The notes under the pieces were generated by a model. That model made no database searches and was not told where the DNA came from. It was given only the letters and a program-made list of their open reading frames with translations. Positions 26,189 through 64,000 of a DNA stretch of 64,000 nucleotides are shown here, piece after piece. The translations under genes and the position numbers were made by a program. Each line of letters starts with the position of its first letter. Position 1 is the first letter of the stretch. The stretch comes from a virus: positions 59,756 to 123,755 of IMG/VR virus record IMGVR_UViG_3300036651_001908; one strand, given 5' to 3'.

Positions 26189-27652
26189 ATGGCCGATGCT
26201 CGTGAGCATGCGGCGGTGATCTTCGCGGCGCTGATCCCTGGTCGGAAAGACCTGCTCGATTCAGCCCGCGGTCAACTCACCCCCGAGCACTTCCCGGACG
26301 CCGTCCAGCGGCAGTTCTGGAAGATCATCTCCTACTACGCCGAGCGCACCGGCAGCGTCCTGACGGACACCGCGCTCAGCGACATCACCCGGACCCTCGA
26401 CGCTGGCAAGCAGGCGCTGTACCAGCAGGTGTTCGACAGCGCGTTCAAGCGCACGGTGGGCGACGACGACTTCACCTGGTCCCTCGACCAGATCCGGGAA
26501 CTCGCAGCCGACCAGGCCACCGCAGCGGTCCTCGCCACCTCGCAGCAGATCCTCCGGCAAGGCTGGGAAGACCCCACCGGCACGACGTTGCAGGGGCAGG
26601 AGGATGCCCGCACCTACCTGCTGGAAGCCCTGGCCGCGATCGACGCTGATCTGCTCCACCAGGCTTCACCCGAGGGCACGATCCAGGACGATGAGGACCG
26701 GTTCCTCAAGCAGTACGCACAGCGCAAACAAGATTTTCAGAGCGGTGTCAGCCATGGCATCGGCTTCGGCCTCCGCGACCTGGACGAGAAGGTGGGCGGC
26801 CTCCAGCCTGGTGACCTCGTGCTCATTGCGGGCTACTCGTCGGACGGCAAGTCCTCCATGGCTGTGCAGTTGGCCTGGAGCGCAGCCGTGGAGCAGGGGA
26901 GGAACGTCCTCTTCTTCACGACCGAGACGGTGTACGAGACGACCGAGCGGAGGATCTTCGCCCGGCACAGCAAGCAGCCGGTGTTCGGACTCCGTGAGGG
27001 TCTGGACACCAAGGATCTAAAACTCGGACGGCTGAAGCCCCACGAGGAGCAGGCGCTGCCCATCGTGGTCGGGGACCTCGCGCGCAACCCGGCGTACGGG
27101 AAGATCCACATCAAGCAGGTGCCCCGGCAGGCCAACATCGCCACGCTGGAAGCGCACGCCATGACGGTCTCCCGGCAGATGAAGATCGACCTCATCGTGA
27201 TCGACTACCTGGCGCTGCTCTCCTCCGACTCCCGGCGCACCACCGACCGTGAGTCTCTAGCCGGGATCATCAAGGCCAGCAAGGTCTGGGCCACCACCTT
27301 CGACAACGGCCGGGGTGTGCCGATCGTCAGCCCGTGGCAGGTGAACCGTGCCTCCCGAGACGCAGCGCTCAGGGACGGCTACTACTCCTCCTCCGCGCTG
27401 GCTGACACGGCGGAGGCCACGAACTCCTCCGACGTGATCGTGAGCCTGCTGGCACCGGCTGACAACGAGGGCCGCTACGCCGAGGTGCGGGGCCAGGTGC
27501 TGAAGAACCGAGACGGTCAGACCAGCAACTCGCTCCTGCTGGACGTGGACTACGCCACCAGCACGTTCACGTCCAAGGCGTCCATCTCCTTCGACAGTTT
27601 CGCTGCGGCAGCGGGCGCGACGGCAGAGGGTCTGGACGACCTCCTGCAATGA
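26189..27652 (+). CDS. dnaB: DnaB-like replicative helicase
   Basis: GGLQPGDLVLIAGYSSDGKS Walker A, IVIDYL Walker B, QVNR, KNRDG. Confidence 0.92.
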   Translation: MADAREHAAVIFAALIPGRKDLLDSARGQLTPEHFPDAVQRQFWKIISYYAERTGSVLTDTALSDITRTLDAGKQALYQQVFDSAFKRTVGDDDFTWSLDQIRELAADQATAAVLATSQQILRQGWEDPTGTTLQGQEDARTYLLEALAAIDADLLHQASPEGTIQDDEDRFLKQYAQRKQDFQSGVSHGIGFGLRDLDEKVGGLQPGDLVLIAGYSSDGKSSMAVQLAWSAAVEQGRNVLFFTTETVYETTERRIFARHSKQPVFGLREGLDTKDLKLGRLKPHEEQALPIVVGDLARNPAYGKIHIKQVPRQANIATLEAHAMTVSRQMKIDLIVIDYLALLSSDSRRTTDRESLAGIIKASKVWATTFDNGRGVPIVSPWQVNRASRDAALRDGYYSSSALADTAEATNSSDVIVSLLAPADNEGRYAEVRGQVLKNRDGQTSNSLLLDVDYATSTFTSKASISFDSFAAAAGATAEGLDDLLQ

Positions 27653-30002: not shown

Positions 30003-30800
30003 ATGGAAATCTTCGGACACACCGCCATCGTCAACTCTCTACGCAACGAACTCCCAGCAGTCTCCCTCTTCGTCGGCCCGCGCTCTATAGGCAAGTGGAC
30101 CTGCGCTGAGGTCATCGCCAAGCACCACGGCATCACGCACGTCCTCGAAGTGCCCCGGCTCAACGTTGAGACGGCACGAGCGCTGGCCAGCCACAGCCAG
30201 GTGGCCACACCGGACGGCAAGGCGCTGGCCATCGTCCGCCTCGGGGACTACACCGAGGAGCGGGCGCCGCAGAACATCCTGCTGAAGTCTCTAGAGGAGC
30301 CCGCCGAGGGCCACCACTTCATCCTCATCTCCCATGACCTGGTCGCGGAGACCGTCGCCTCTCGCGCGACCCGCTTCGAGTTCGGCTACCTGTCGGTGGC
30401 GTCCATCGAGCACGCGCTCCGCCAGCGTGGGCTGCCCGAGCACGAGGTGACACAGTTCGCGCGCCAGTGCCACGGCCGGGTCGGGGATGCCCTGCACATG
30501 GCCGATCTTTTGCAGAAGAAGGCCCTGGTGATCACGGCCATGCGGGCTATCCAAGAACATGATTCCGAATCTCTAGCCCGGTGCGCCGATGCCTGGACTC
30601 CTGCACACACAGAAACGGCGGTGGCATGGTGTTACGAAGCGATCATCGGGAGGGACAAGTCCCGCCTGTTCAGCAAGGCGGAATTGGGCGACATGTCCAG
30701 GAAGACAGCGACTCGTATCCTGATCGCCCTACGCGACACGCATCGGCCCCGGCTGGTGGTGAGGGGCTCGCTGCAATCCGTCCTGTCGGCAATGGGCTGA
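30003..30800 (+). CDS. DNA polymerase III delta'-like clamp loader subunit
   Basis: IFGH, LFVGPRSIGK, QNILLKSLEEP, ETVASR. Confidence 0.85.
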   Translation: MEIFGHTAIVNSLRNELPAVSLFVGPRSIGKWTCAEVIAKHHGITHVLEVPRLNVETARALASHSQVATPDGKALAIVRLGDYTEERAPQNILLKSLEEPAEGHHFILISHDLVAETVASRATRFEFGYLSVASIEHALRQRGLPEHEVTQFARQCHGRVGDALHMADLLQKKALVITAMRAIQEHDSESLARCADAWTPAHTETAVAWCYEAIIGRDKSRLFSKAELGDMSRKTATRILIALRDTHRPRLVVRGSLQSVLSAMG

Positions 30801-30929
30801 CCAAGGCGCACATCGGGATCATCACCCTGTGGTGTCCCGTGTGTCAGGAGGATGGCGTAGCCTATTCAGTCATGGTGGCGAACGCCTGGATCCGACACCA
30901 CGACAACCTTCACGCTCTAGAGGACTCCG

Positions 30930-31178
30930 ATGTATCCCGATGACCTGACCGACATGACTGGGATGCAGGTCATCCTCAGTGAAGCCGTGGGGCGTGACAA
31001 CGCCATCGTGATGGAGGGTGAACCGTGGTTCAACGCCAAGGTCGCCATGCACCCGCTGGACTTCTACGAGATGGGTACTCCTCCCGGATCGCTGAAGCGA
31101 CTGGAGAAGGGGCTCGACTACCTGCTCGCTGAGGCCAACCGGCAACTGGATCAACTGGAGGCCCGCCTTGCTGCCTGA
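30930..31178 (+). CDS. hypothetical protein
   Basis: GAGGA RBS, codon usage. Confidence 0.65.
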   Translation: MYPDDLTDMTGMQVILSEAVGRDNAIVMEGEPWFNAKVAMHPLDFYEMGTPPGSLKRLEKGLDYLLAEANRQLDQLEARLAA

Positions 31179-31368
31179 GAACCATGAGTACGAAGTGCTC
31201 CGCCTGCTGGTGGTCTCCTACCCCTCCACCTGCATCGCGGATGACCGGCACCGCATCCGTCCGGGCGACAAGGCTGCCCGGCTCCAGCGTGCGGACAACC
31301 CCATGTGGCCGGTGCCTGGGCTGGTCTGCTACAAGTGCGCCAAGGGCATGCGTAGGGCGGTTGCCTGA
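31168..31368 (+). CDS. small Cys-containing hypothetical protein
   Basis: C...H...CYKC; overlaps both neighbours. Confidence 0.55.
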   Translation: MLPENHEYEVLRLLVVSYPSTCIADDRHRIRPGDKAARLQRADNPMWPVPGLVCYKCAKGMRRAVA

Positions 31369-32348
31369 TGTCCACGTTTTCGGCCTGGTGGAAGGCCTAC
31401 CAGGATGGCAAGGGCATCCGGCAGATCACTTACGTCTGCGGCACCGAGAAGATCCTGGTGGATGAGGTGGTCGGTGGCATCCAGCGCTCGGTGGCCGACG
31501 CATGGGGATCCATGAACCTGGCGGTCACCGAGACCAATCAGCGGGAAATCTGGGAGATGCTGGACCGGCGTCCGATGTTCTACACCAACGCACTCACCGT
31601 GCTCTACCACGCGCAGGAACTCCAGGACACCCAGCGGCTGTGGGAGTGGTGGAAGAACAAGAAGTACAACCCGCACCACTATCTAATTCTTGTTTCTGAT
31701 CTGGACGCCGCGCCCCGCCAGCAGGTCGGTGACCCGAAGGAGCACAAGACCGAGGTCGTCCCCCACCTGCGCTTCGGTGCCGCGGGCTGGCTCATCGAGT
31801 GCAAGCCCTTCACTCAAGCCACCACGTCCACCGCCGTCCAGTGGGTGCGCTCGAAGGTGGAGATGACCGACGCCGTCGCCGGGCACCTGCTCAACCGTGC
31901 CGATGGTGACCTCCGGCTGGTGCGGGACGCGACCCAGAAACTCAAGGTGTTCCCTGGCACCATCACCCAGAGTGTGATCAACGACCTCTTCACCGCCGTG
32001 CCCCGTGACTCCTTCGTGGATGCCCTGCTCGCCCTCGACAAGAAGACTGCCCTCGCCGCGCTGGAGCGCCTGCCCACCGAGGACTACTCCAGGACGCTGG
32101 GCATGCTGGACTCGTCTCTAGAACTGGCGGGGACGGTCCATGACTTCGAGACGAACAACAAGCCGAGGCTCGAACTGATCAAGGCGGCAGGCAAGAAGGC
32201 TTGGCTGCTGCCGGAGGTGGAGAAGGTCGCGAAGCACTACGACCTGAAGCGGCGCAACCGGACGCGGCAACTGCTGCTCATGGCCGACGAAGCCCTCCAG
32301 GGTGGCGAGACCACGGGAGTGTTCGAGTCGCTGGTGGCGCTGTGGTAA
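31368..32348 (+). CDS. DNA polymerase III delta (HolA)-like clamp loader subunit
   Basis: YVCGTEKILVDE N-terminus; AVAGHLLNRADGDLRLVRDATQKL..F..TIT...I pattern; size. Confidence 0.75.
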   Translation: MSTFSAWWKAYQDGKGIRQITYVCGTEKILVDEVVGGIQRSVADAWGSMNLAVTETNQREIWEMLDRRPMFYTNALTVLYHAQELQDTQRLWEWWKNKKYNPHHYLILVSDLDAAPRQQVGDPKEHKTEVVPHLRFGAAGWLIECKPFTQATTSTAVQWVRSKVEMTDAVAGHLLNRADGDLRLVRDATQKLKVFPGTITQSVINDLFTAVPRDSFVDALLALDKKTALAALERLPTEDYSRTLGMLDSSLELAGTVHDFETNNKPRLELIKAAGKKAWLLPEVEKVAKHYDLKRRNRTRQLLLMADEALQGGETTGVFESLVALW

Positions 32349-32554
32349 AGCGCGCCCGCAACTACCGGCTCGGCAAGTGGGGGTACCGAGGGGTGCGCTA
32401 CCACGAGCACTCGGACCTGTTCCAAGCCCGGTGCTGTGGTGAGGAGACCTACCACGAGGAGCCCGAGGACGCCGCCCGCGCGTACGATGCCATGGCCAAG
32501 AGGCACTTCGGTGACTCCGCCATCCTGAACTTCCCGGAGGAGACCGATGACTAG
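32342..32554 (+). CDS. stand-alone AP2-domain DNA-binding protein
   Basis: GYRGV...EDAARAYDAMAKRHFGDSAILNFP. Confidence 0.8.
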   Translation: MVKRARNYRLGKWGYRGVRYHEHSDLFQARCCGEETYHEEPEDAARAYDAMAKRHFGDSAILNFPEETDD

Positions 32555-34937
32555 GAACTACGCGGCGATTCGGTCAGCCGAAAAGTTTGAGGCCTTCGTG
32601 CAGCGCCTTCTCGAAGAGGGCAAGCCGTTCGGGTTCGACATCGAATCCGGCTACTCCGGTCCAGACCTGGCAGGAGCAGCGCTGCTGCCCTTCCATCCCC
32701 GCTGGATCATGACGGGGTTCTCCTTCACGAACAGTGTCGAATGGGGCCGTTACGTCCCGGTCGCCCATGACACCGGGCAGAACGTAGACGACCCCCGGCG
32801 CACGGCGGCGGCGTTGTGGCGGCTCTTGCAGAGCGGTAAGGGTGTGGCGCATAACGCTTCCTTTGAATTGTTGGGGCTGTCGCGGTGGTTCCGAGACATG
32901 CTCTCGGATGATCCTGAACTCGGCCTGGAAGTACACAAGTCGAAGGGCACGTTCCCGATCTACAGCGACACGCTCATCGAGGCCTACTGCACCGGGCTGT
33001 TCGCTCCGCAGAACACTGGCGGCCCCGGCATCGGCCTGAAGGGGCTGACCAAGTTCGTCTTCGACCACCAGATGGTGGAGTTCAAGAGTTTGTTCGACAA
33101 GTATACGACGAAGGTGAGGTTCAACTCTCTACCGCCCGAGGGTGTCAACGTCGAATACGCCTGCGAAGACAGTGTGTGGTGCCTGGCCCTGCACCTGAAG
33201 CACTACCCGCTGGTGAAGGACTCGTTCATCTTCAAGACCGAGATGCAGTTGCAGCCGGTGCTGACCGAGATGGAGATGGAAGGCCTGCTTCTCGACTGGG
33301 GGAAGATCCACGAGAAGACTGAGGAGGTGCAGCACTTCCGCGACAGGATGAACGAGGAAATCATGGCCAACCTCTCCGAGCGGATGGGCGAGGTCATCAA
33401 CTTCAACCTGGCCTCCACCAAGGAACTCGGAAATCTTCTTTTCGAACGGCTCGGCCTGCCGATCAAGAACCGTAGCGAGAAGACCGGCGCCGCATCCACG
33501 AGCGAGAAGGCGCTGCACGCCATCGCCCAGCGGGATCCCGTCGTCGCTCGCGTCCTGGAGTACCGCGAGGTCAACAAACTCCTTGGCTCCTACCTCCGCA
33601 AGTACGACACCGAACTCAACTACTGCGACTGTGGCCGAGCCCACCCGAACCACAAGCAGACGGGGGCAGCGACCGGCCGCATGTCGGTGGACCAGGTCTC
33701 GTATCAGCAGTGGCCGAAGCCGTACCACTACGAACTTGGTGACGGCACGACCTTCGACCTGAACTTCCGCGACCTGCTCATCTCCCCGAAGGAGTACCGC
33801 ATCGTCGGCTACGACTTCAGTCAGGTGGAGTTGCGTGTGCTCGCAGGGCTGGCCAACGAGACGGCTCTACTCAAGGCCTTCGCGGACGGCACCGACATCC
33901 ACAAGGCCACGGCCAGCCAGATGATGGGCATCCCGCTCGACCAGGTCACGAAGAAGCAGCGCGCCCAGGGCAAGACGCTGAACTTCGCGGTGGTCTACGG
34001 CTCCGGGCCCGCGAACATCGCTGAACTGCTGACCACCCCCGATGCCCCGGTCACCACCGAGGACGCTCAGGAACTCCTCTCGAAGTACTTCGCCGCCTTC
34101 TCCAACCTCAAGGGCTGGATGGATGAGCAGGTGGAGTTCGGGCGCAAGAACAAGTACGTGCTCACACCGTTCGGCCGTCGCTTCACCATCTGGGAGTACG
34201 ACTCCCACAACGGCTGGATCGTCAGCAAGGGTGACCGCATGTGCGTGAACGCCCCGGTGCAGGGCGGCGCTGCGGATTACATGAAGATCGGCATGGTGCG
34301 GGCGCAGCGGGCGATCAAGAAGGCCGGGCTCCAGGAGAAGATCCGCCTGGTGATGACAGTGCACGACGCCCTGGAGTTCTACGTGCACGAGTCGGTCAGC
34401 ACGCAGGAGGTCATCGATCTGATCACGCCGCAGGTGTCGTTCAAGGTGAAGCACCTGCCGAACCTGCCGGAGATTCTGGCCGAATGGCACGAGGGTCCGA
34501 CGTGGGGCAGCGTGGTGGATGTGCTGCTCGACGCTGAGAAGCACGTCACCGGCTATGAACTGGATGGGGTGGAGGGGATCTTCGAGACGTGGCAGGAAGT
34601 GCTGGCGGCTACCACCGCCGAGCCTGATCCGGTGACCGAGCCCGAGGAGGAACAGGGAAGTCCCATCCCGGTAGAGTCACATGTCTCTGGATACACCATC
34701 TCGATCCCGCGGATGCCTGATGAGCAGCAACTGACATCGTTCCTCGCTTTCATGAATGAACACCCCGGGTCTCATCCGGTGGTCGTTGCGAGTCCTGCTG
34801 GCAACATCACCATGGAGACGAGACATACGCTGCCACCGTTTGCTGTGACTCAGATCAGTATTCTTCTCGGCGGCGCATCGGTCACTGAGACCAGGGAGAA
34901 CTCGCTTGAAAATCTTGTTCGGGAGTTGGAACTGTGA
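32547..34937 (+). CDS. polA: DNA polymerase I-like (family A) with 3'-5' exonuclease and C-terminal extension
   Basis: FDIES ExoI, HNASFE, YACED, ATGRMS, DFSQVELR motif A, RAQGKTLNFAVVYG motif B (Phe762 type), VHDAL motif C. Confidence 0.95.
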   Translation: MTRNYAAIRSAEKFEAFVQRLLEEGKPFGFDIESGYSGPDLAGAALLPFHPRWIMTGFSFTNSVEWGRYVPVAHDTGQNVDDPRRTAAALWRLLQSGKGVAHNASFELLGLSRWFRDMLSDDPELGLEVHKSKGTFPIYSDTLIEAYCTGLFAPQNTGGPGIGLKGLTKFVFDHQMVEFKSLFDKYTTKVRFNSLPPEGVNVEYACEDSVWCLALHLKHYPLVKDSFIFKTEMQLQPVLTEMEMEGLLLDWGKIHEKTEEVQHFRDRMNEEIMANLSERMGEVINFNLASTKELGNLLFERLGLPIKNRSEKTGAASTSEKALHAIAQRDPVVARVLEYREVNKLLGSYLRKYDTELNYCDCGRAHPNHKQTGAATGRMSVDQVSYQQWPKPYHYELGDGTTFDLNFRDLLISPKEYRIVGYDFSQVELRVLAGLANETALLKAFADGTDIHKATASQMMGIPLDQVTKKQRAQGKTLNFAVVYGSGPANIAELLTTPDAPVTTEDAQELLSKYFAAFSNLKGWMDEQVEFGRKNKYVLTPFGRRFTIWEYDSHNGWIVSKGDRMCVNAPVQGGAADYMKIGMVRAQRAIKKAGLQEKIRLVMTVHDALEFYVHESVSTQEVIDLITPQVSFKVKHLPNLPEILAEWHEGPTWGSVVDVLLDAEKHVTGYELDGVEGIFETWQEVLAATTAEPDPVTEPEEEQGSPIPVESHVSGYTISIPRMPDEQQLTSFLAFMNEHPGSHPVVVASPAGNITMETRHTLPPFAVTQISILLGGASVTETRENSLENLVRELEL

Positions 34938-35467
34938 TCCCTGAACTGGAGAAGTACGACACCCCGCTCGCCGGGGTGGAGCAGCGGATGACCGGCTGGG
35001 TGGAGGAGGCGCTGGAACTCCGGCACGGCGCAGCCGAGGATCCGGACGGCACCCTCGACGGCATCCTCTTGGTGATCTTTCCCGATGAGGTGATCCACGC
35101 CTTGCAACGGGTGCGCGCCCGTTCCGACCGGGTCGATGGGCTGCTGGCCAACATCACCCGCGCCCGAGGCAGGCTCCGTCGCATGCAGGCCAACGCCAAG
35201 TTCGAAGCCGAGCGTGCCTACGCTGAGGCAGCCAGCCGGGGGCTCACCCACCGGGTGGACTTCTCCTCCGCCAAGGAGCGGGACAGCAACGCCCGGCTGG
35301 ATTCTTTTGAACAGGAACGCGTCGCTCACCATGCCGCCCAGGCGGTGGCCATGGCGGACGAATGCTACGAGGTCATCCGTGACATCTCGTGGCAGTTGAA
35401 CGGCATGCGCACCGAACTCCGGGCCGTGCTGAACGCCCTCCAGATGGAGTCCAGTTTGGAGCGGTAA
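34934..35467 (+). CDS. helical protein, possibly UvsY-like recombination mediator
   Basis: Coiled-coil composition; lies between polA and SSB. Confidence 0.55.
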   Translation: MIPELEKYDTPLAGVEQRMTGWVEEALELRHGAAEDPDGTLDGILLVIFPDEVIHALQRVRARSDRVDGLLANITRARGRLRRMQANAKFEAERAYAEAASRGLTHRVDFSSAKERDSNARLDSFEQERVAHHAAQAVAMADECYEVIRDISWQLNGMRTELRAVLNALQMESSLER

Positions 35468-35553: not shown

Positions 35554-36549
35554 ATGCCTCGCATCGATTTCGCCCCAGAGTTCAAGAAGGCGACGACCAA
35601 CTACGACTTCCCGAAGTTGAAGTTGAAGAAGGATGAGCAGGCCCGCATCCTGATCTACGAAGCGCAGCCGATGATGGAGTTCGTTCACACCATCCGTGCT
35701 CCGAAGGTCATCATGGGCAAGCCCGTGATGGAGACCAAGTCCCGTCGCGATGGCACGCAGTACCAGGACTACCAGATGGACTTCCTCTCGAAGCCGATCT
35801 GCCTCGGGGACTACAACATCCTCATGGAGAAGGGCAGCGACCCGAAGAACTGCCCCGTCTGCGCTCTAGCGCACGAGTCCACCGACATGGCCGCGGCACC
35901 GCAGCGTCGGTTCGCCATCCACGTGGTGCGGTACAAGACGAAGCAGGGCACGACGAAGCCCGCCGTCCCCTTCTCGGTGGAACTCGTGGTGTGGTCCTTC
36001 ACGGACAAGACCTACAACAAGATCGAGGAGTTCCGTGAGGAGTGGGGCGACCTGCGCCAGCACGACATCGTTCTGAACTGCACCAACGAGCCGTTCCAGT
36101 TGTACGACATCAGCATCAGCCCGACGGCTGAGTGGATGCAGGACGAAGAGCGCATGAAGTTGGTGAAGACCACGTTCAAGGAGAATCAGATCCCCGACCT
36201 CTCCATCGCCTGCGGCTCCCGCAAGGAGAAGAAGTGGATCGATGAGGACGTGCAGAAGGTGCGTCAGCGCTGGGTGGAAATCTCCGGTGCGCAGACCGAG
36301 GCCGCCCCTCCGCTCGGTGACGCCCTGAACGGCCTGTTCAGCAACGTCCAGCCCGGCTCAGCAGCGGCCACCTCACTCGGGTCCGGTGCACCGGAGCGCG
36401 GTGCGGACCCGGAGCCCGCACCGTTCGACAGCAACGCCGTCCTCGGGCTGGGTGAGCCGCACACGGCTTCCACGCCCAGCATCACGGTGCCCGTCTCCAC
36501 CGCGGAGAAGAGCCTGGACGACCTGCTGGCGGACCTGGGCGACGATTGA
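35554..36549 (+). CDS. single-stranded DNA-binding protein (T4 gp32-like)
   Basis: H...CLGD...CPVC Zn site and acidic tail SLDDLLADLGDD. Confidence 0.75.
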   Translation: MPRIDFAPEFKKATTNYDFPKLKLKKDEQARILIYEAQPMMEFVHTIRAPKVIMGKPVMETKSRRDGTQYQDYQMDFLSKPICLGDYNILMEKGSDPKNCPVCALAHESTDMAAAPQRRFAIHVVRYKTKQGTTKPAVPFSVELVVWSFTDKTYNKIEEFREEWGDLRQHDIVLNCTNEPFQLYDISISPTAEWMQDEERMKLVKTTFKENQIPDLSIACGSRKEKKWIDEDVQKVRQRWVEISGAQTEAAPPLGDALNGLFSNVQPGSAAATSLGSGAPERGADPEPAPFDSNAVLGLGEPHTASTPSITVPVSTAEKSLDDLLADLGDD

Positions 36550-39624: not shown

Positions 39625-39804
39625 ATGAAGTCCCTAACCCTCACTGTCAACGTCCTCGATACGGAGGAGGCTGACGTGGAAGAACTTCTCTGCGGCTTCG
39701 GCAAGTTGCTGACCCAGGGAAACAAGATTTCGGACTACGTGATCCATCATGTGGTCACCGAGCGACGCCCCAAGCGGGGGCCCTACTCCATTGAGGACAA
39801 GTGA
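39625..39804 (+). CDS. hypothetical protein
   Basis: Fills the gap; TGATG overlap with the next gene. Confidence 0.5.
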   Translation: MKSLTLTVNVLDTEEADVEELLCGFGKLLTQGNKISDYVIHHVVTERRPKRGPYSIEDK

Positions 39805-40412
39805 TGGGCAAGCCAACCACCAACGCCCTGCTGTGGGTGGACATCGAGAGTACAGGGCTCGACCCCGTCTTCGACTCCATCCTGGAGGTGGGGGCGATCC
39901 TCACCGACCTCGACCTGGTCCCCATCAGTGGCTACCACGAGGTGATCAAGCCCGACCGCATGGCCATCGAACGCCTGCGTGGCGCACACGACGTGGTCCT
40001 GTCCATGCACAAGGAGTCCGGGCTGATCAAGGACATGCGGACGGCTACCGTCTCGCTGGCTGAGGCCGAGGCGGAACTCGTCCGCATGGTGACGGCCACC
40101 GCCTTCGACTACAACGAAATCTCCCTGGCGGGCAGCGGTGTCGCGCACTTCGACCGCCGCGTGATCACTCACCAGATGAAGGATCTGGACAAGTGGCTGA
40201 CGTATTACAGTTACGACATCGGCGTGTTCCGTCGGATGGCGACGCTGTTCAACCACGGGCAGCAGGTCATCCCACCGGTGCGTGAGTCCTATATGGAGGG
40301 GTTCAAAGCCCACCGTGCTTGGGCTGACGTGTCCGCGCACCTGGCAGAAGCCAAGAAGTTCAAGGACTGGGTGGCCGGACGTACGGTTCCCCTCAGCCAG
40401 CAGCCGGTATGA
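39804..40412 (+). CDS. oligoribonuclease-like DEDDh exonuclease
   Basis: LLWVDIESTGLDP, MHKESGL, AGSGVAHFDR, HRAWAD. Confidence 0.88.
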   Translation: MGKPTTNALLWVDIESTGLDPVFDSILEVGAILTDLDLVPISGYHEVIKPDRMAIERLRGAHDVVLSMHKESGLIKDMRTATVSLAEAEAELVRMVTATAFDYNEISLAGSGVAHFDRRVITHQMKDLDKWLTYYSYDIGVFRRMATLFNHGQQVIPPVRESYMEGFKAHRAWADVSAHLAEAKKFKDWVAGRTVPLSQQPV

Positions 40413-50572: not shown

Positions 50573-50892
50573 CACATCCATCCCTCGTAGGGGTTGTCGT
50601 CGCTCACGTGCACCCACTCGGGGGCGTAGCGCTTCGCCGTGCCCAGCAGCCAGTCTCGACCCACTGGATTTGCAGTATGCACGCGAATCTCGTTCGGCCA
50701 CTTCTCGTTCTCGATCATCCAGGTGAGTACCGGCCGCGACGTGTCGTCAGTCGAGGTGCCACCGAGGTCGTGGTCGAACGAGACCACTTCGAAATCATGT
50801 CTGCTCAGCAGGGTGATGGCTTGTGCAGCGGACTGTGCCAGGTGGGTGAACTCGGCAGGCAGCACACGCTCGTCATCGATGTACAGACGCAT
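50572..50892 (-). CDS. cyclic-phosphate-processing receiver (cREC-like) domain protein
   Basis: LYIDDER, SFDHDLG, HTANPVG. Confidence 0.8.
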   Translation of the reverse strand: MRLYIDDERVLPAEFTHLAQSAAQAITLLSRHDFEVVSFDHDLGGTSTDDTSRPVLTWMIENEKWPNEIRVHTANPVGRDWLLGTAKRYAPEWVHVSDDNPYEGWM

Positions 50893-50996
50893 CAGTCCCT
50901 CTTGTCCTGCCAGAGCCGACAGTCCTTGCACACCGAGCCACCACCAACGCGGTTCTGCCAACGGTGCCCGAACAGGGCACAGATGATCTTCTTCAT
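50892..50996 (-). CDS. 34-aa Cys/His peptide (DUF1660-like)
   Basis: ICALFGHRW...CKDC; TGATG overlaps on both sides. Confidence 0.6.
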   Translation of the reverse strand: MKKIICALFGHRWQNRVGGGSVCKDCRLWQDKRD

Positions 50997-59283: not shown

Positions 59284-60539
59284 CGTCCACCTCGTGGTCG
59301 CAAAGCATCTCGTCCCCCTCGTGGCAGTGGTCGCAATCGAAATCGCAGCGCATCTGCTCGACCTCGTGCATCCGTCCGGCCAGGTCCAGCACCTCGTGCG
59401 CTTCGGCCTTCAGGCCATCGCGGAACAGGATCAGTGCCCGGAATGCCAGCGCTTCGGTAATCTTGGCCCGCTCCCGCTCGCTCAGTTGCATCAGAAATCA
59501 TCTTCCCCACAGGCAGCGCAGTACCAGGTACCGGCCGGTGTCTCTTCCAGTTCATCCACCGCTCGACAGTTCGGGCAGGTGAAGTGAGGCACCATGCCCC
59601 AGTCGTTCTCCATCAGATCGTCTCGTCCGCGAACTCGGTCATCCGGTTCAGCAGATCCTTCTCGGTGTCCGAATAGCCCAACTTCGGCTCGGCCAACTTC
59701 AGAATCTCGACCCAGCCCAGGATGGTGTCGGCCTCATCCGTCGTCAGCGGGAAGTAGGCGCGGGTCGGCAGCGGCGCAGCGTCAGGCCATGGCCCGACCG
59801 GATACTCCTCCATCAGAAATCCTTCTTTGCGTGTGCGTTGAGGATGTCGCGGACTCGACGCGTGCTGATCCAGCCCTTGAGCCCTTGCTCGTCCTCTTCG
59901 TCACACGCGCTTCGTAGTGCGAGCGCCAATAGAGACATGGGCGGAATCTTCTTCTTGCCGAACATCTCAGTCCCCTTTCGTGAACTTGTTCAGAACCGCG
60001 ACCGGGACAAGCGCCCTCGACACGTGGTTCTCGTCGCAATACTTCGATATGAATGCACAGTCACAGTCGTACCAAGTGACCCACACCTCTTCGGCCTCGG
60101 GCATCACATCCCCTTCGTCTTGGCAATGATCCGGCGCAGTCGCACCACCGGTATCTCCTTGTAGCCGATCGTCTCGGCACGCTCGCACTCGTCCTGAATC
60201 TCCCGGAGAGCGGTGCCCAGGCGTTGGATGGTCAGGCCTAGAACCTCGACCAGTTCCCCGTGGTTCAGCCGCGCTAGATCCTCAGGCAGCGTCATCGTCG
60301 TCCTTTCCCATCAGTCGAATCTCCACACTCGACGGCGGCTCCAGGATCAAGAATTGGATCCGGACCTCCTGGTCCAGCAGCAGCCGCGCGACCCGGCCCA
60401 AGTCCACCGCGTCCAGCGTCAGTGACTCGCCCCCACCTCGGAGGATCAGCGCAGCCAGCGCCAGGCGCAGGTCCTCGACCTCGGCTTCCAGGTGCACCCA
60501 GTGGTTCATCTGCTTCGTCAGTTTGTCTTCTAGAGTCAT
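59270..60539 (-). CDS. run of small hypothetical genes (59270-59491, 59613-59813, 60104-60295, 60282-60539 and shorter ORFs)
   Basis: Gene packing; 60539 is leaderless (TATGAT-N6-ATG). Confidence 0.6.
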
Positions 60540-63613: not shown

Positions 63614-64000
63614 TCAACGCCAGCAGATCCCAAACCGCAAATGTGTACTACTCCAGAGCCCGCACCTCAGCGGACCATCCAGACGTAGAACTGCATCGTG
63701 AGCCACCGGTCGAAATCTTCTTGCCGACTCCCAGGGGCAGGCTTGGTCAACCGGCCTAGATACTCCCAGCCGCGCAGTCGATACCGGCTCATCTCGGTGT
63801 CTCGCACCACGGCACACTCGTTCGGCGGCTCAGCAGCCACGCGTAGCACCCCCGGAATGCCATCGTGGCGTCGGATAGAGCGACGAACAGCCCCTATTGG
63901 GCATCGTCACCCTCTGCGACATTCCCAGAGCCTGATTTGCCCCACCACGCGTGGTCCCCGATGGGCGCTCCGCGCCATGCACCGTCCACCTGGCGCAGTC

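Follow-up and report, generated by a model that had tools for sequence, protein, structure and literature searches.

Replicases are usually seen as fixed pairings, for example that of DnaE with the tau complex and the beta clamp, and phages that encode a family-A DNA polymerase (PolA) are expected to use thioredoxin or other clamp-free means. The present analysis concerns a phage PolA encoded on a 64,000-nucleotide stretch of DNA (positions 59,756 to 123,755 of IMG/VR virus record IMGVR_UViG_3300036651_001908, hereafter the window), together with the clamp and clamp-loader genes of the same phage. Among described systems, phages Ma-LMM01 and RSL1 possess a PolA together with homologues of polIII-beta and polIII-gamma (Kazlauskas and Venclovas 2011, PMC3201878), and beta was proposed there as the processivity factor for PolA, the composition of the loader being left open. 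The combination of PolA with a bacterial-type clamp and DnaX is therefore already known as such. Other routes to PolA processivity are the pairing of T7 gp5 with host thioredoxin and the UDG-like domains of the SPO1, T5 and N4 polymerases (PMC3201878, PMC10201439).

The genome analysed here shares with Ma-LMM01 and RSL1 the trio of a family-A polymerase, a bacterial-type clamp and a DnaX-like subunit within one phage genome. It differs from them in belonging to a group of actinophage genomes of about 120-140 kb, and it goes beyond the published account of those two phages in that the delta and delta' subunits are also phage-encoded, the PolA carries a C-terminal domain whose predicted fold resembles that of DnaE, and DnaX carries a matching tail. 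As in T7 gp5 and the SPO1, T5 and N4 polymerases, accessory parts appear to have been added to a family-A core for replication; in those enzymes, however, they are thumb insertions or N-terminal domains and involve no clamp loader, whereas the part added to the phage PolA is C-terminal. In the literature searched, which included PMC3201878, PMC4889955 and PMC10201439 and had subscription journals and supplements outside its scope, neither a published PolA with a DnaE-type C-terminal domain nor a published phage DnaX with a peptide tail was found. The main text of PMC10201439 contains none of the terms 'DnaE', 'C-terminal domain' and 'C-terminal extension', and 'clamp' appears in it once, in the reference list. 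The reading preferred here, which is held with moderate confidence, is that of a chimeric holoenzyme in which a 'mini-tau' form of DnaX tethers PolA through its DnaE-like domain, with the clamp also encoded by the phage.

PolA and its C-terminal extension

The product of the polA open reading frame (ORF) is made up of the following parts (window coordinates):

32547-34937, + strand: PolA, whole ORF
32547-34508, + strand: PolA core (residues 1-654), consisting of a 3'-5' exonuclease part and the polymerase domain
34509-34601, + strand: conserved short segment (residues 655-685)
34602-34682, + strand: acidic, proline-rich linker (residues 686-712)
34683-34898, + strand: domain resembling the DnaE C-terminal domain (residues 713-784), predicted beta-alpha-beta-beta-alpha-beta (AF2, Foldseek, VIA)
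34899-34934, + strand: flexible acidic C-terminal tail (residues 785-796), ending LVRELEL, a candidate clamp-binding peptide

PF00476 (DNA_pol_A) spans residues 262-630 with an E value of 3e-86 (290 bits, cut-off 34.3), and PolA also matches the Pol I profile NF004397 at E 3.5e-98. Columns that are invariant among 42 PolA sequences include D423, R472, K476, H606 and D607, which we take to be the catalytic motifs A, B and C, and D31 and E33, presumably the DxE of the exonuclease.

The extra C-terminal residues reported in the original prediction are real, and the peptides quoted in it are present in the translation. The usual family-A C-terminal end is reached at WHEGPTWG (residues 647-654) and is followed by 142 further residues, which comprise in order the conserved segment, the acidic linker, a conserved block of about 72 residues and a 12-residue tail. 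An LD...Y...F pattern in the segment is kept in the window PolA, in L002, in phage Magritte and in PolA alignment A3, while the linker varies in length between relatives; in this protein only 58 residues (31 of segment and 27 of linker) lie between the core and the DnaE-like domain. The consensus of the conserved block is approximately v.vtl.eMPde.qW..F..fL..rPG.d.v.v.TPeG.l.ld....l...DQ..iSllLGGA.

A search with the whole PolA sequence identified 311 homologues at E<=1e-60. The best 120 of these 311 are 45-63% identical to the query and are located on contigs of up to 139 kb; 111 of the 120 possess the motif W.E..WG, and in every one of the 111 it is followed by an extension of 130-311 residues (the other nine did not fit the expression and stand outside the extension-length count). 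Because at least 130 residues follow the motif in 111/111 homologues that have it, the extension is considered a family trait rather than an accidental ORF end. Of 121 PolA C-termini, 116 have a loose LGGA-like motif. The only named relative of this PolA, that of Magritte, is 45% identical over the whole length including the conserved block, and its neighbouring genes are arranged in the same order. Several homologues of 1166-1227 aa (P0065, P0073, P0096, P0107 and P0125) contain a LAGLIDADG_3 insertion, which is probably an intein.

Clamp and clamp-loader genes

Two clamp-loader genes precede polA in the window, and DnaX and the clamp are encoded elsewhere in the genome (G000:C1 coordinates, outside the window):

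30003-30800, + strand: delta' (HolB-like) clamp-loader subunit, 265 aa (PF13177, phrog_5846, TIGR00678)
31368-32348, + strand: delta (HolA-like) clamp-loader subunit, 326 aa (TIGR01128)
G000:C1:32170-33288, + strand: DnaX, 372 aa (PF13177, AAA, lid domain, PF12169 domain III)
G000:C1:24152-25378, - strand: beta-clamp homologue, 408 aa (PF00712, TIGR00663)

The delta'-like and delta-like genes that had been proposed upstream of polA are borne out by these profiles, and the coordinates stated for the two genes and for polA are correct, all three lying on the + strand. The delta' product matches PF13177 at E 3e-7 (31 bits, cut-off 27), phrog_5846 'clamp loader' at E 1.5e-14 and TIGR00678 (holB) at E 7e-15, the last with 55 bits against a cut-off of 180. 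An inactive P-loop and Walker B together with a retained SRC-type arginine finger are the hallmark of delta'. In the phage protein the P-loop is degenerate (GPRSIGKW), no DE Walker B is present and an SRA arginine-finger motif is retained; in an alignment of 22 homologues GP.S[VI]GK is followed by W, T, R, A, Y, E or M, DE is absent, and SR[AC] or TR[AG] is conserved throughout. The protein is 34% identical to Magritte gene 62.

The delta product matches TIGR01128 (holA) at E 9.6e-20 (71.1 bits, just below the curated cut-off of 80), with residues 22-321 of 326 aligned to profile positions 3-311 of 316, and gave no match to Pfam (even at E<=10) or PHROGs. Its sequence contains no P-loop of the form GxxxxGK[ST], and its partner genes DnaX, delta' and beta are present in the genome. 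It is 40% identical to Magritte gene 67, and 102 homologues were found, ten of which are named 'DNA polymerase III delta subunit' by JGI.

DnaX scores 224.9 bits against TIGR02397 (cut-off 250) and has intact Walker A (GPSGSGKTT) and Walker B (YDEA) motifs. It is of gamma length, apparently without tau domains IV-V; PF12170 (tau domain V) was found in none of five genomes, by a profile whose control was positive in just three of 14 named genomes and which thus represents a narrow family. The beta homologue matches PF00712 with 25.1 bits (cut-off 24.4) and TIGR00663 at E 3e-14 (52.9 bits, cut-off 137.65) over residues 74-367 of 408; PF02767 was not found in it. The genes for DnaX and beta are separated from the polA cluster by 60-68 kb. 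A beta homologue occurs in 10/10 related genomes and DnaX in 14/14 searched genomes of at least 89% completeness, and Magritte has both. A DnaE, on the other hand, was not found by the Pfam scan of the 166 ORFs of at least 65 aa in this genome (13 + 80 + 73), nor in any of five related complete genomes, with a control that was positive in 10 of 14 named genomes. From this, the phage appears to have every part of a bacterial-type processivity set, PolA standing where DnaE would be.

The earlier statement that no DnaE, DnaX or beta clamp is encoded in the window is correct for the window and misleading for the phage, as the scan of the remaining genome recovered the 372-aa DnaX and the 408-aa beta homologue. 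The suggestion made with it, that clamp machinery is redirected, is not supported for that of the host, which a phage encoding its own beta and DnaX need not redirect. Two side observations concern the annotation and structure of these genes. In Magritte (OR553905), genes 4 (DnaX), 62 (delta'), 67 (delta) and 247 (beta) are all labelled 'ASCE ATPase', and the clamp homologue is by family not an ATPase. In G007 (L138:58-2226) the open frame of DnaX is 723 aa long, about 350 residues being inserted between the Walker A and Walker B regions.

The DnaX tail and its co-variation with the PolA domain

The C-termini of DnaX were read in 22 genomes (this phage, G000, and loci L135-L139, L144 and L147-L161). 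Where a tail extends beyond domain III, it consists of a variable Pro/Ala-rich linker of about 25-40 residues and then a conserved peptide of about 8 residues with the pattern [KRQ][LMIV][ST][LMI]x[DEQ][LMI]. Examples are RKLSLAEM, RRLSLADM, KQLSLSDLQ and RKLTLAEL, and the DnaX of this phage possesses a divergent version, RPLTPEELRQRL. Linker and peptide are found on DnaX in all 20 genomes with the PolA domain, as called by profile. In two genomes the 672-aa PolA (L031:9995-12010 and L032:10001-12016) ends directly after the core, and the domain profile finds no copy anywhere in either genome (positive controls 3/3 found). In both of these DnaX stops directly after domain III, with neither linker nor peptide, and both keep beta, DnaX and delta.

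Where the PolA domain occurs, the DnaX tail thus occurs as well, and where the domain is missing so is the tail (20/20 versus 0/2); this is regarded as a lead rather than proof. This co-variation suggests that the PolA domain may bind the C-terminal part of DnaX, and it lends comparative support (both present in 20/20, both absent in 2/2) to the part of the original prediction in which PolA docks on a DnaX-type loader, the delta and delta' subunits of which are themselves real. The sub-clade with the 672-aa PolA represents a natural 'deletion' control. A small ORF that follows the domain-less PolAs was considered as a split-off domain and rejected (hhalign E 0.18).

Like tau in the tau-alpha tether of E. 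coli, the phage DnaX has a flexible linker and a C-terminal end that is predicted to bind the polymerase. It differs from E. coli tau in consisting of domains I-III, linker and peptide, without domain IV or a globular domain V, and no likeness between the E. coli tau C-terminus and the phage peptide was visible by eye. Because the phage DnaX apparently has no domain V, the partner of the PolA domain cannot be that domain, unlike the partner of the DnaE1 domain. The C-terminal domains of tau in E. coli and Taq have no relationship to each other and differ in how they bind (PMC4703070), and since tau C-terminal partners change in evolution, the phage DnaX peptide would fit as a new partner.

Such changes of partner would also suit an explanation in which the PolA domain contacts another replisome component, for example the acidic tail of the SSB (a protein that binds single-stranded DNA) or the DnaB-like helicase, or serves PolA dimerisation, and couples synthesis without the clamp loader. 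In B. subtilis, DnaE3 requires the C-terminal tail of SSB to stay at the fork, and lineages differ in what the DnaE C-terminal domain does (PMC3919608); in the phage, an SSB-like gene whose product has an acidic tail lies two genes downstream of polA. The SSB-like gene and the gene for a helical protein (34934-35467) are, however, also located beside the domain-less PolA and show none of the co-variation seen for the DnaX peptide, and a partner of this kind is distinctly unlikely.

Structural relationships of the PolA domain

The domain was modelled with AF2 from 28 phage sequences and no templates. The overall pLDDT of the model is 83, rising to about 90 in the core and falling to about 50 in the tail, and the topology is beta-alpha-beta-beta-alpha-beta. 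In a Foldseek comparison with 350,542 PDB chains, ranks 1-6 are all occupied by Pol III alpha (2hpi, 3e0d and 4iqj chains A-D) with E values of 1.4e-3 to 1.6e-2 and TMq of 0.54-0.62, and the next match is at E 0.29. VIA-align, a structure aligner independent of Foldseek, was applied to 48,161 representative chains and places 2hpi_A from Taq first (Z 8.1, rmsd 4.2, 76 aligned, chain residues 1119-1205) and 5fku_A from E. coli second (Z 6.4, rmsd 3.1, 74 aligned, chain residues 1075-1157), followed by Z 4.2; in a second look, 3e0d, 4iqj and 5fkv reached Z 7.9, 7.5 and 5.2, with KaiB after them at 4.8. The aligned E. coli stretch corresponds to the tau-binding domain of DnaE, which is residues 1079-1160 (PMC4703070).

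The DnaE1 C-terminal tau-binding domain (Taq 2HPI/3E0D/4IQJ; E. coli) is thus the best PDB match of the phage domain and has the same order of secondary-structure elements. Both are the last domain of a replicative polymerase, and patterns of the type hPG..V and LxG can be seen by eye in both. The DnaE1 domain stands on a family-C polymerase after an OB domain, whereas the phage domain stands on a family-A polymerase after an acidic linker, and no significant similarity between the two is seen in sequence or profile comparisons. The likeness to the C-terminal domain of DnaE claimed in the original prediction is accordingly upheld by fold, both Foldseek and VIA putting Pol III alpha first, and fails by sequence statistics (phmmer, profiles and hhalign, detailed below). 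Judged from the predicted model, the likeness is quite probably real and specific, and it may reflect homology of the two domains.

A different view of the same model is that of a generic small domain with the common ferredoxin-like arrangement, whose match to DnaE is convergent or fortuitous and whose role is unrelated, such as stability, regulation or ligand binding. The absence of a significant sequence signal in any search agrees with this, as does the fact that, by the note of the tool, queries with no true relatives typically also reach a best Z of 7-8 and that KaiB, HMA and ACT-like domains trail at Z 3.5-4.8. It is nevertheless considered very unlikely, since two different aligners agree in giving Pol III alpha the top rank among PDB chains, clearly apart from the next fold, the position as last domain of a replicative polymerase is matched, and the DnaX tail, by co-varying with the domain, suggests a contact within the replisome.

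The fold likeness to a tau-binding domain also underlies the 'host tau' option that was raised earlier, by which the domain mimics that of the host DnaE, binds host tau, and recruits host parts or displaces Pol III. A phage with its own DnaX, delta, delta', beta, DnaB and SSB-like genes would have little need of host parts, and the domain has no sequence likeness to any DnaE domain tried; host capture is regarded as highly improbable. A similarly slight chance is given to the domain being a working tau-binding socket that accepts host tau as well as the phage mini-tau. If host tau were also accepted, the phage polymerase would plug into clamp-loader/helicase assemblies of the host, or would evict Pol III alpha from them and shut down host replication, and a bacterial replisome would be taken over by the mimicry of one docking domain.

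The PolA tail and the clamp

The tail of PolA is disordered in the AF2 model (pLDDT about 50). Over 121 homologues, the last 20 residues contain on average 4.3 acidic and 0.9 basic residues, and 95 of the homologues end in L, F, V, I or M, typical endings being LTEGLEL, VMAGMLL and LAADIAF. A strict tail pattern fits 58 of the 121 and does not fit this PolA's own tail, LVRELEL, which is a candidate for a clamp-binding peptide. A C-terminal motif common to other proteins of the phage was looked for and rejected, as the patterns fitted only 3 of 198 ORFs and none of these three has a function in replication assigned to it.

The phage beta clamp (10-row alignment) and the PolA module (28 rows) were co-folded using ESMFold2. 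The ipSAE values are 0.47, 0.47 and 0.43, the best of three controls is 0.02, and the verdict is 'weak support'. Among 80 solved complexes, 58 reach the mark, as do 2 of 110 mismatched pairs; with scores of 0.60 or less, only 7 of the 80 solved complexes and both mismatches do so. The runs agree in at least 86% of contacts, and the pLDDT of the partner is at least 78. The pass may partly reflect likeness to the many solved clamp-peptide complexes, and the co-fold is taken as a mild increase in the odds of a contact between PolA and the clamp.

These features might be accounted for by a tether to the clamp only, in which the PolA module, mainly through its tail, binds beta, the DnaX peptide likewise binds the clamp and assists the loader in holding it, and PolA and DnaX do not touch. 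The bacterial clamp-binding consensus is QL[SD]LF or QLSLPL, and the DnaX peptides KQLSLSDLQ and RKLSLAEM resemble it; the disordered, acidic PolA tail with its mostly hydrophobic last residue (95/121) and the weak pass of the co-fold (0.47 versus 0.02) are in agreement. The two genomes without the PolA domain, however, are also without the DnaX peptide and yet keep beta, which is unexpected if the partner of the peptide is beta. Some relatives, such as L010 and L012, have the domain and nearly no tail, and the DnaX peptide is present in the genome of L012, the one of these whose DnaX was read. Such a tether, moreover, assigns no role to a folded DnaE-like domain, and on balance it is thought unlikely.

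A possible chimeric holoenzyme

In the preferred reading, that of a chimeric holoenzyme, a family-A polymerase with proofreading would replace DnaE inside an otherwise bacterial set like that of the Pol III holoenzyme, the beta homologue and the DnaX/delta/delta' loader being all phage-encoded. A C-terminal module on a flexible acidic linker would join PolA to the loader and clamp; it would consist of a small domain with the fold of the DnaE tau-binding domain and then a disordered acidic and hydrophobic tail. The phage DnaX would act as the 'mini-tau', with an ATPase core of gamma length, a Pro/Ala-rich linker and the conserved C-terminal peptide, and processivity would come from a contact of the PolA tail or domain with the phage clamp. 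What the data show is which genes are present, that the domain is conserved, what fold is predicted for it and which structures come nearest, and that domain and DnaX peptide occur or are missing together; we infer every binding step in this arrangement, its stoichiometry and the homology to the DnaE domain.

Several points weigh against this arrangement. The structural query is itself a predicted model, and VIA Z scores of about 8 are common for small folds according to the note of the tool. The E. coli C-terminal domain in 5fku and 5fkv is a homology model fitted into an 8 A map (PMC4703070), and because that target is itself modelled, Taq alpha is the sole independent experimental match. 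Searches with the sequence brought up no DnaE. Pfam at E<=10 gave nothing on the PolA extension, and a word-indexed search with residues 650-795 alone gave 0 matches. The phmmer search of the 142-residue extension against 1.84 billion representatives returned nine matches, none of them a DnaE: the query's own fragment, two longer PolAs (one with an intein), five shorter pieces that end in the domain, and one surface protein. The 28-sequence domain profile searched against all PDB sequences reached a best E of 0.32 and no DnaE, and its comparison with the DnaEs of Streptomyces phage Nerdos, Mycobacterium phage I3, a Bacillus phage and E. coli was not significant. With hhalign, comparison with E. 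coli DnaE and 78 proteobacterial DnaE C-termini, mostly gamma- and beta-proteobacterial, gave E 0.11-0.25 and a probability below 1%; the helix-turn 'hPG' and the '..LG' strand are in register in this alignment, which is not statistical evidence. The missing sequence signal is less telling because this domain shows little conservation even from one DnaE to another and is often missed by profiles (PMC3919608).

The comparative evidence is open to similar objections. The two domain-less genomes are close kin, so that the co-variation probably rests on a single evolutionary event. The PolA domain is not obligatory, since two phages manage with beta, DnaX and delta and no domain. The DnaX peptide is QLSL-like, as in clamp-binding motifs, and may bind beta rather than PolA, and the co-fold with the clamp is weak and yields no interface.

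The surface protein among the phmmer matches, P0122 (1098 aa, with six stretches of Listeria-Bacteroides repeats), matches the extension at E 5.5e-7 and was judged spurious. It probably reflects a common 'TPEG..T' pattern, and calls for caution in single-sequence searches with this domain.

The clade comprises at least 311 PolA homologues, in genomes of about 120-140 kb and with one cultured member (Magritte), and as a whole it appears to have exchanged the catalytic subunit while keeping the architecture of the holoenzyme. This would seemingly have been achieved by moving one docking domain onto PolA and shrinking tau to a core and a peptide. If true, the phages would offer a minimal, naturally occurring system in which to study the tethering of polymerases to clamp loaders, and an example of domain transfer between unrelated polymerase families. 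Public annotation would also be corrected, for example for the clamp, DnaX, delta and delta' of Magritte, with their common 'ASCE ATPase' label.

Neighbouring genes and source genome

The replication module is located between 26 and 40 kb of the window, on the + strand. Besides polA and the delta' and delta genes, it contains:

26189-27652, + strand: DnaB-like replicative helicase (PF03796 DnaB_C, E 1.9e-26)
after the DnaB-like helicase, + strand: PNKP-type HAD phosphatase
between the delta' and delta genes: two small ORFs
34934-35467, + strand: conserved helical protein, 177 aa, whose start overlaps the PolA stop codon (GTGA)
35554-36549, + strand: SSB-like protein, 331 aa, with an acidic C-terminal tail (DDLLADLGDD); Magritte gene 72
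after the SSB-like gene: protein with a weak, sub-threshold Pfam match (IS110-type transposase family)
last listed gene of the module: RecA

The SSB-like protein is 50% identical to Magritte gene 72, which is annotated as a single-stranded DNA binding protein, and found no match in Pfam, PHROG and NCBIfam searches; going by its sequence, it may represent an SSB family not previously described. In 23 of 33 loci (BLASTP) the 177-aa protein is encoded next to polA on its downstream side or at most about 1.2 kb away. It gave no family match, and its AF2 model (pLDDT 88) consists of long helices, with generic helical matches only. It was considered as a partner resembling tau domain V and rejected, being a long-helix bundle with matches of that generic kind (ExbB, PspA, GCN4), and its gene also sits beside PolA without the C-terminal domain. 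A DEDD exonuclease encoded at 39801-40409 (+ strand) scores best as oligoribonuclease (NF003765, E 2e-29, 102 bits, cut-off 106), not as Pol III epsilon.

The window is part of an actinophage genome whose closest named relative is Microbacterium phage Magritte. It forms the right-hand part of a virus record of 123,755 bp with a CheckV completeness of 99%, and a megablast search of the region against 50,697 phage records gave 0 matches. A 3361-aa ORF (G000:C1:42462-52547, + strand, outside the window) follows the portal and Mu-F-like genes and has no Pfam match at E<=0.001. At its end (window positions 63639-63999 approximately), the genome repeats its initial 361 bases (G000:C1:1-361) with 99.4% identity, and this repeat is either a direct terminal repeat or the assembly overlap of a circularly permuted genome. 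Finally, a small protein encoded at 50575-50961 of the window (- strand) possesses a cyclic-phosphate-processing receiver domain (PF20274, E 1e-22).

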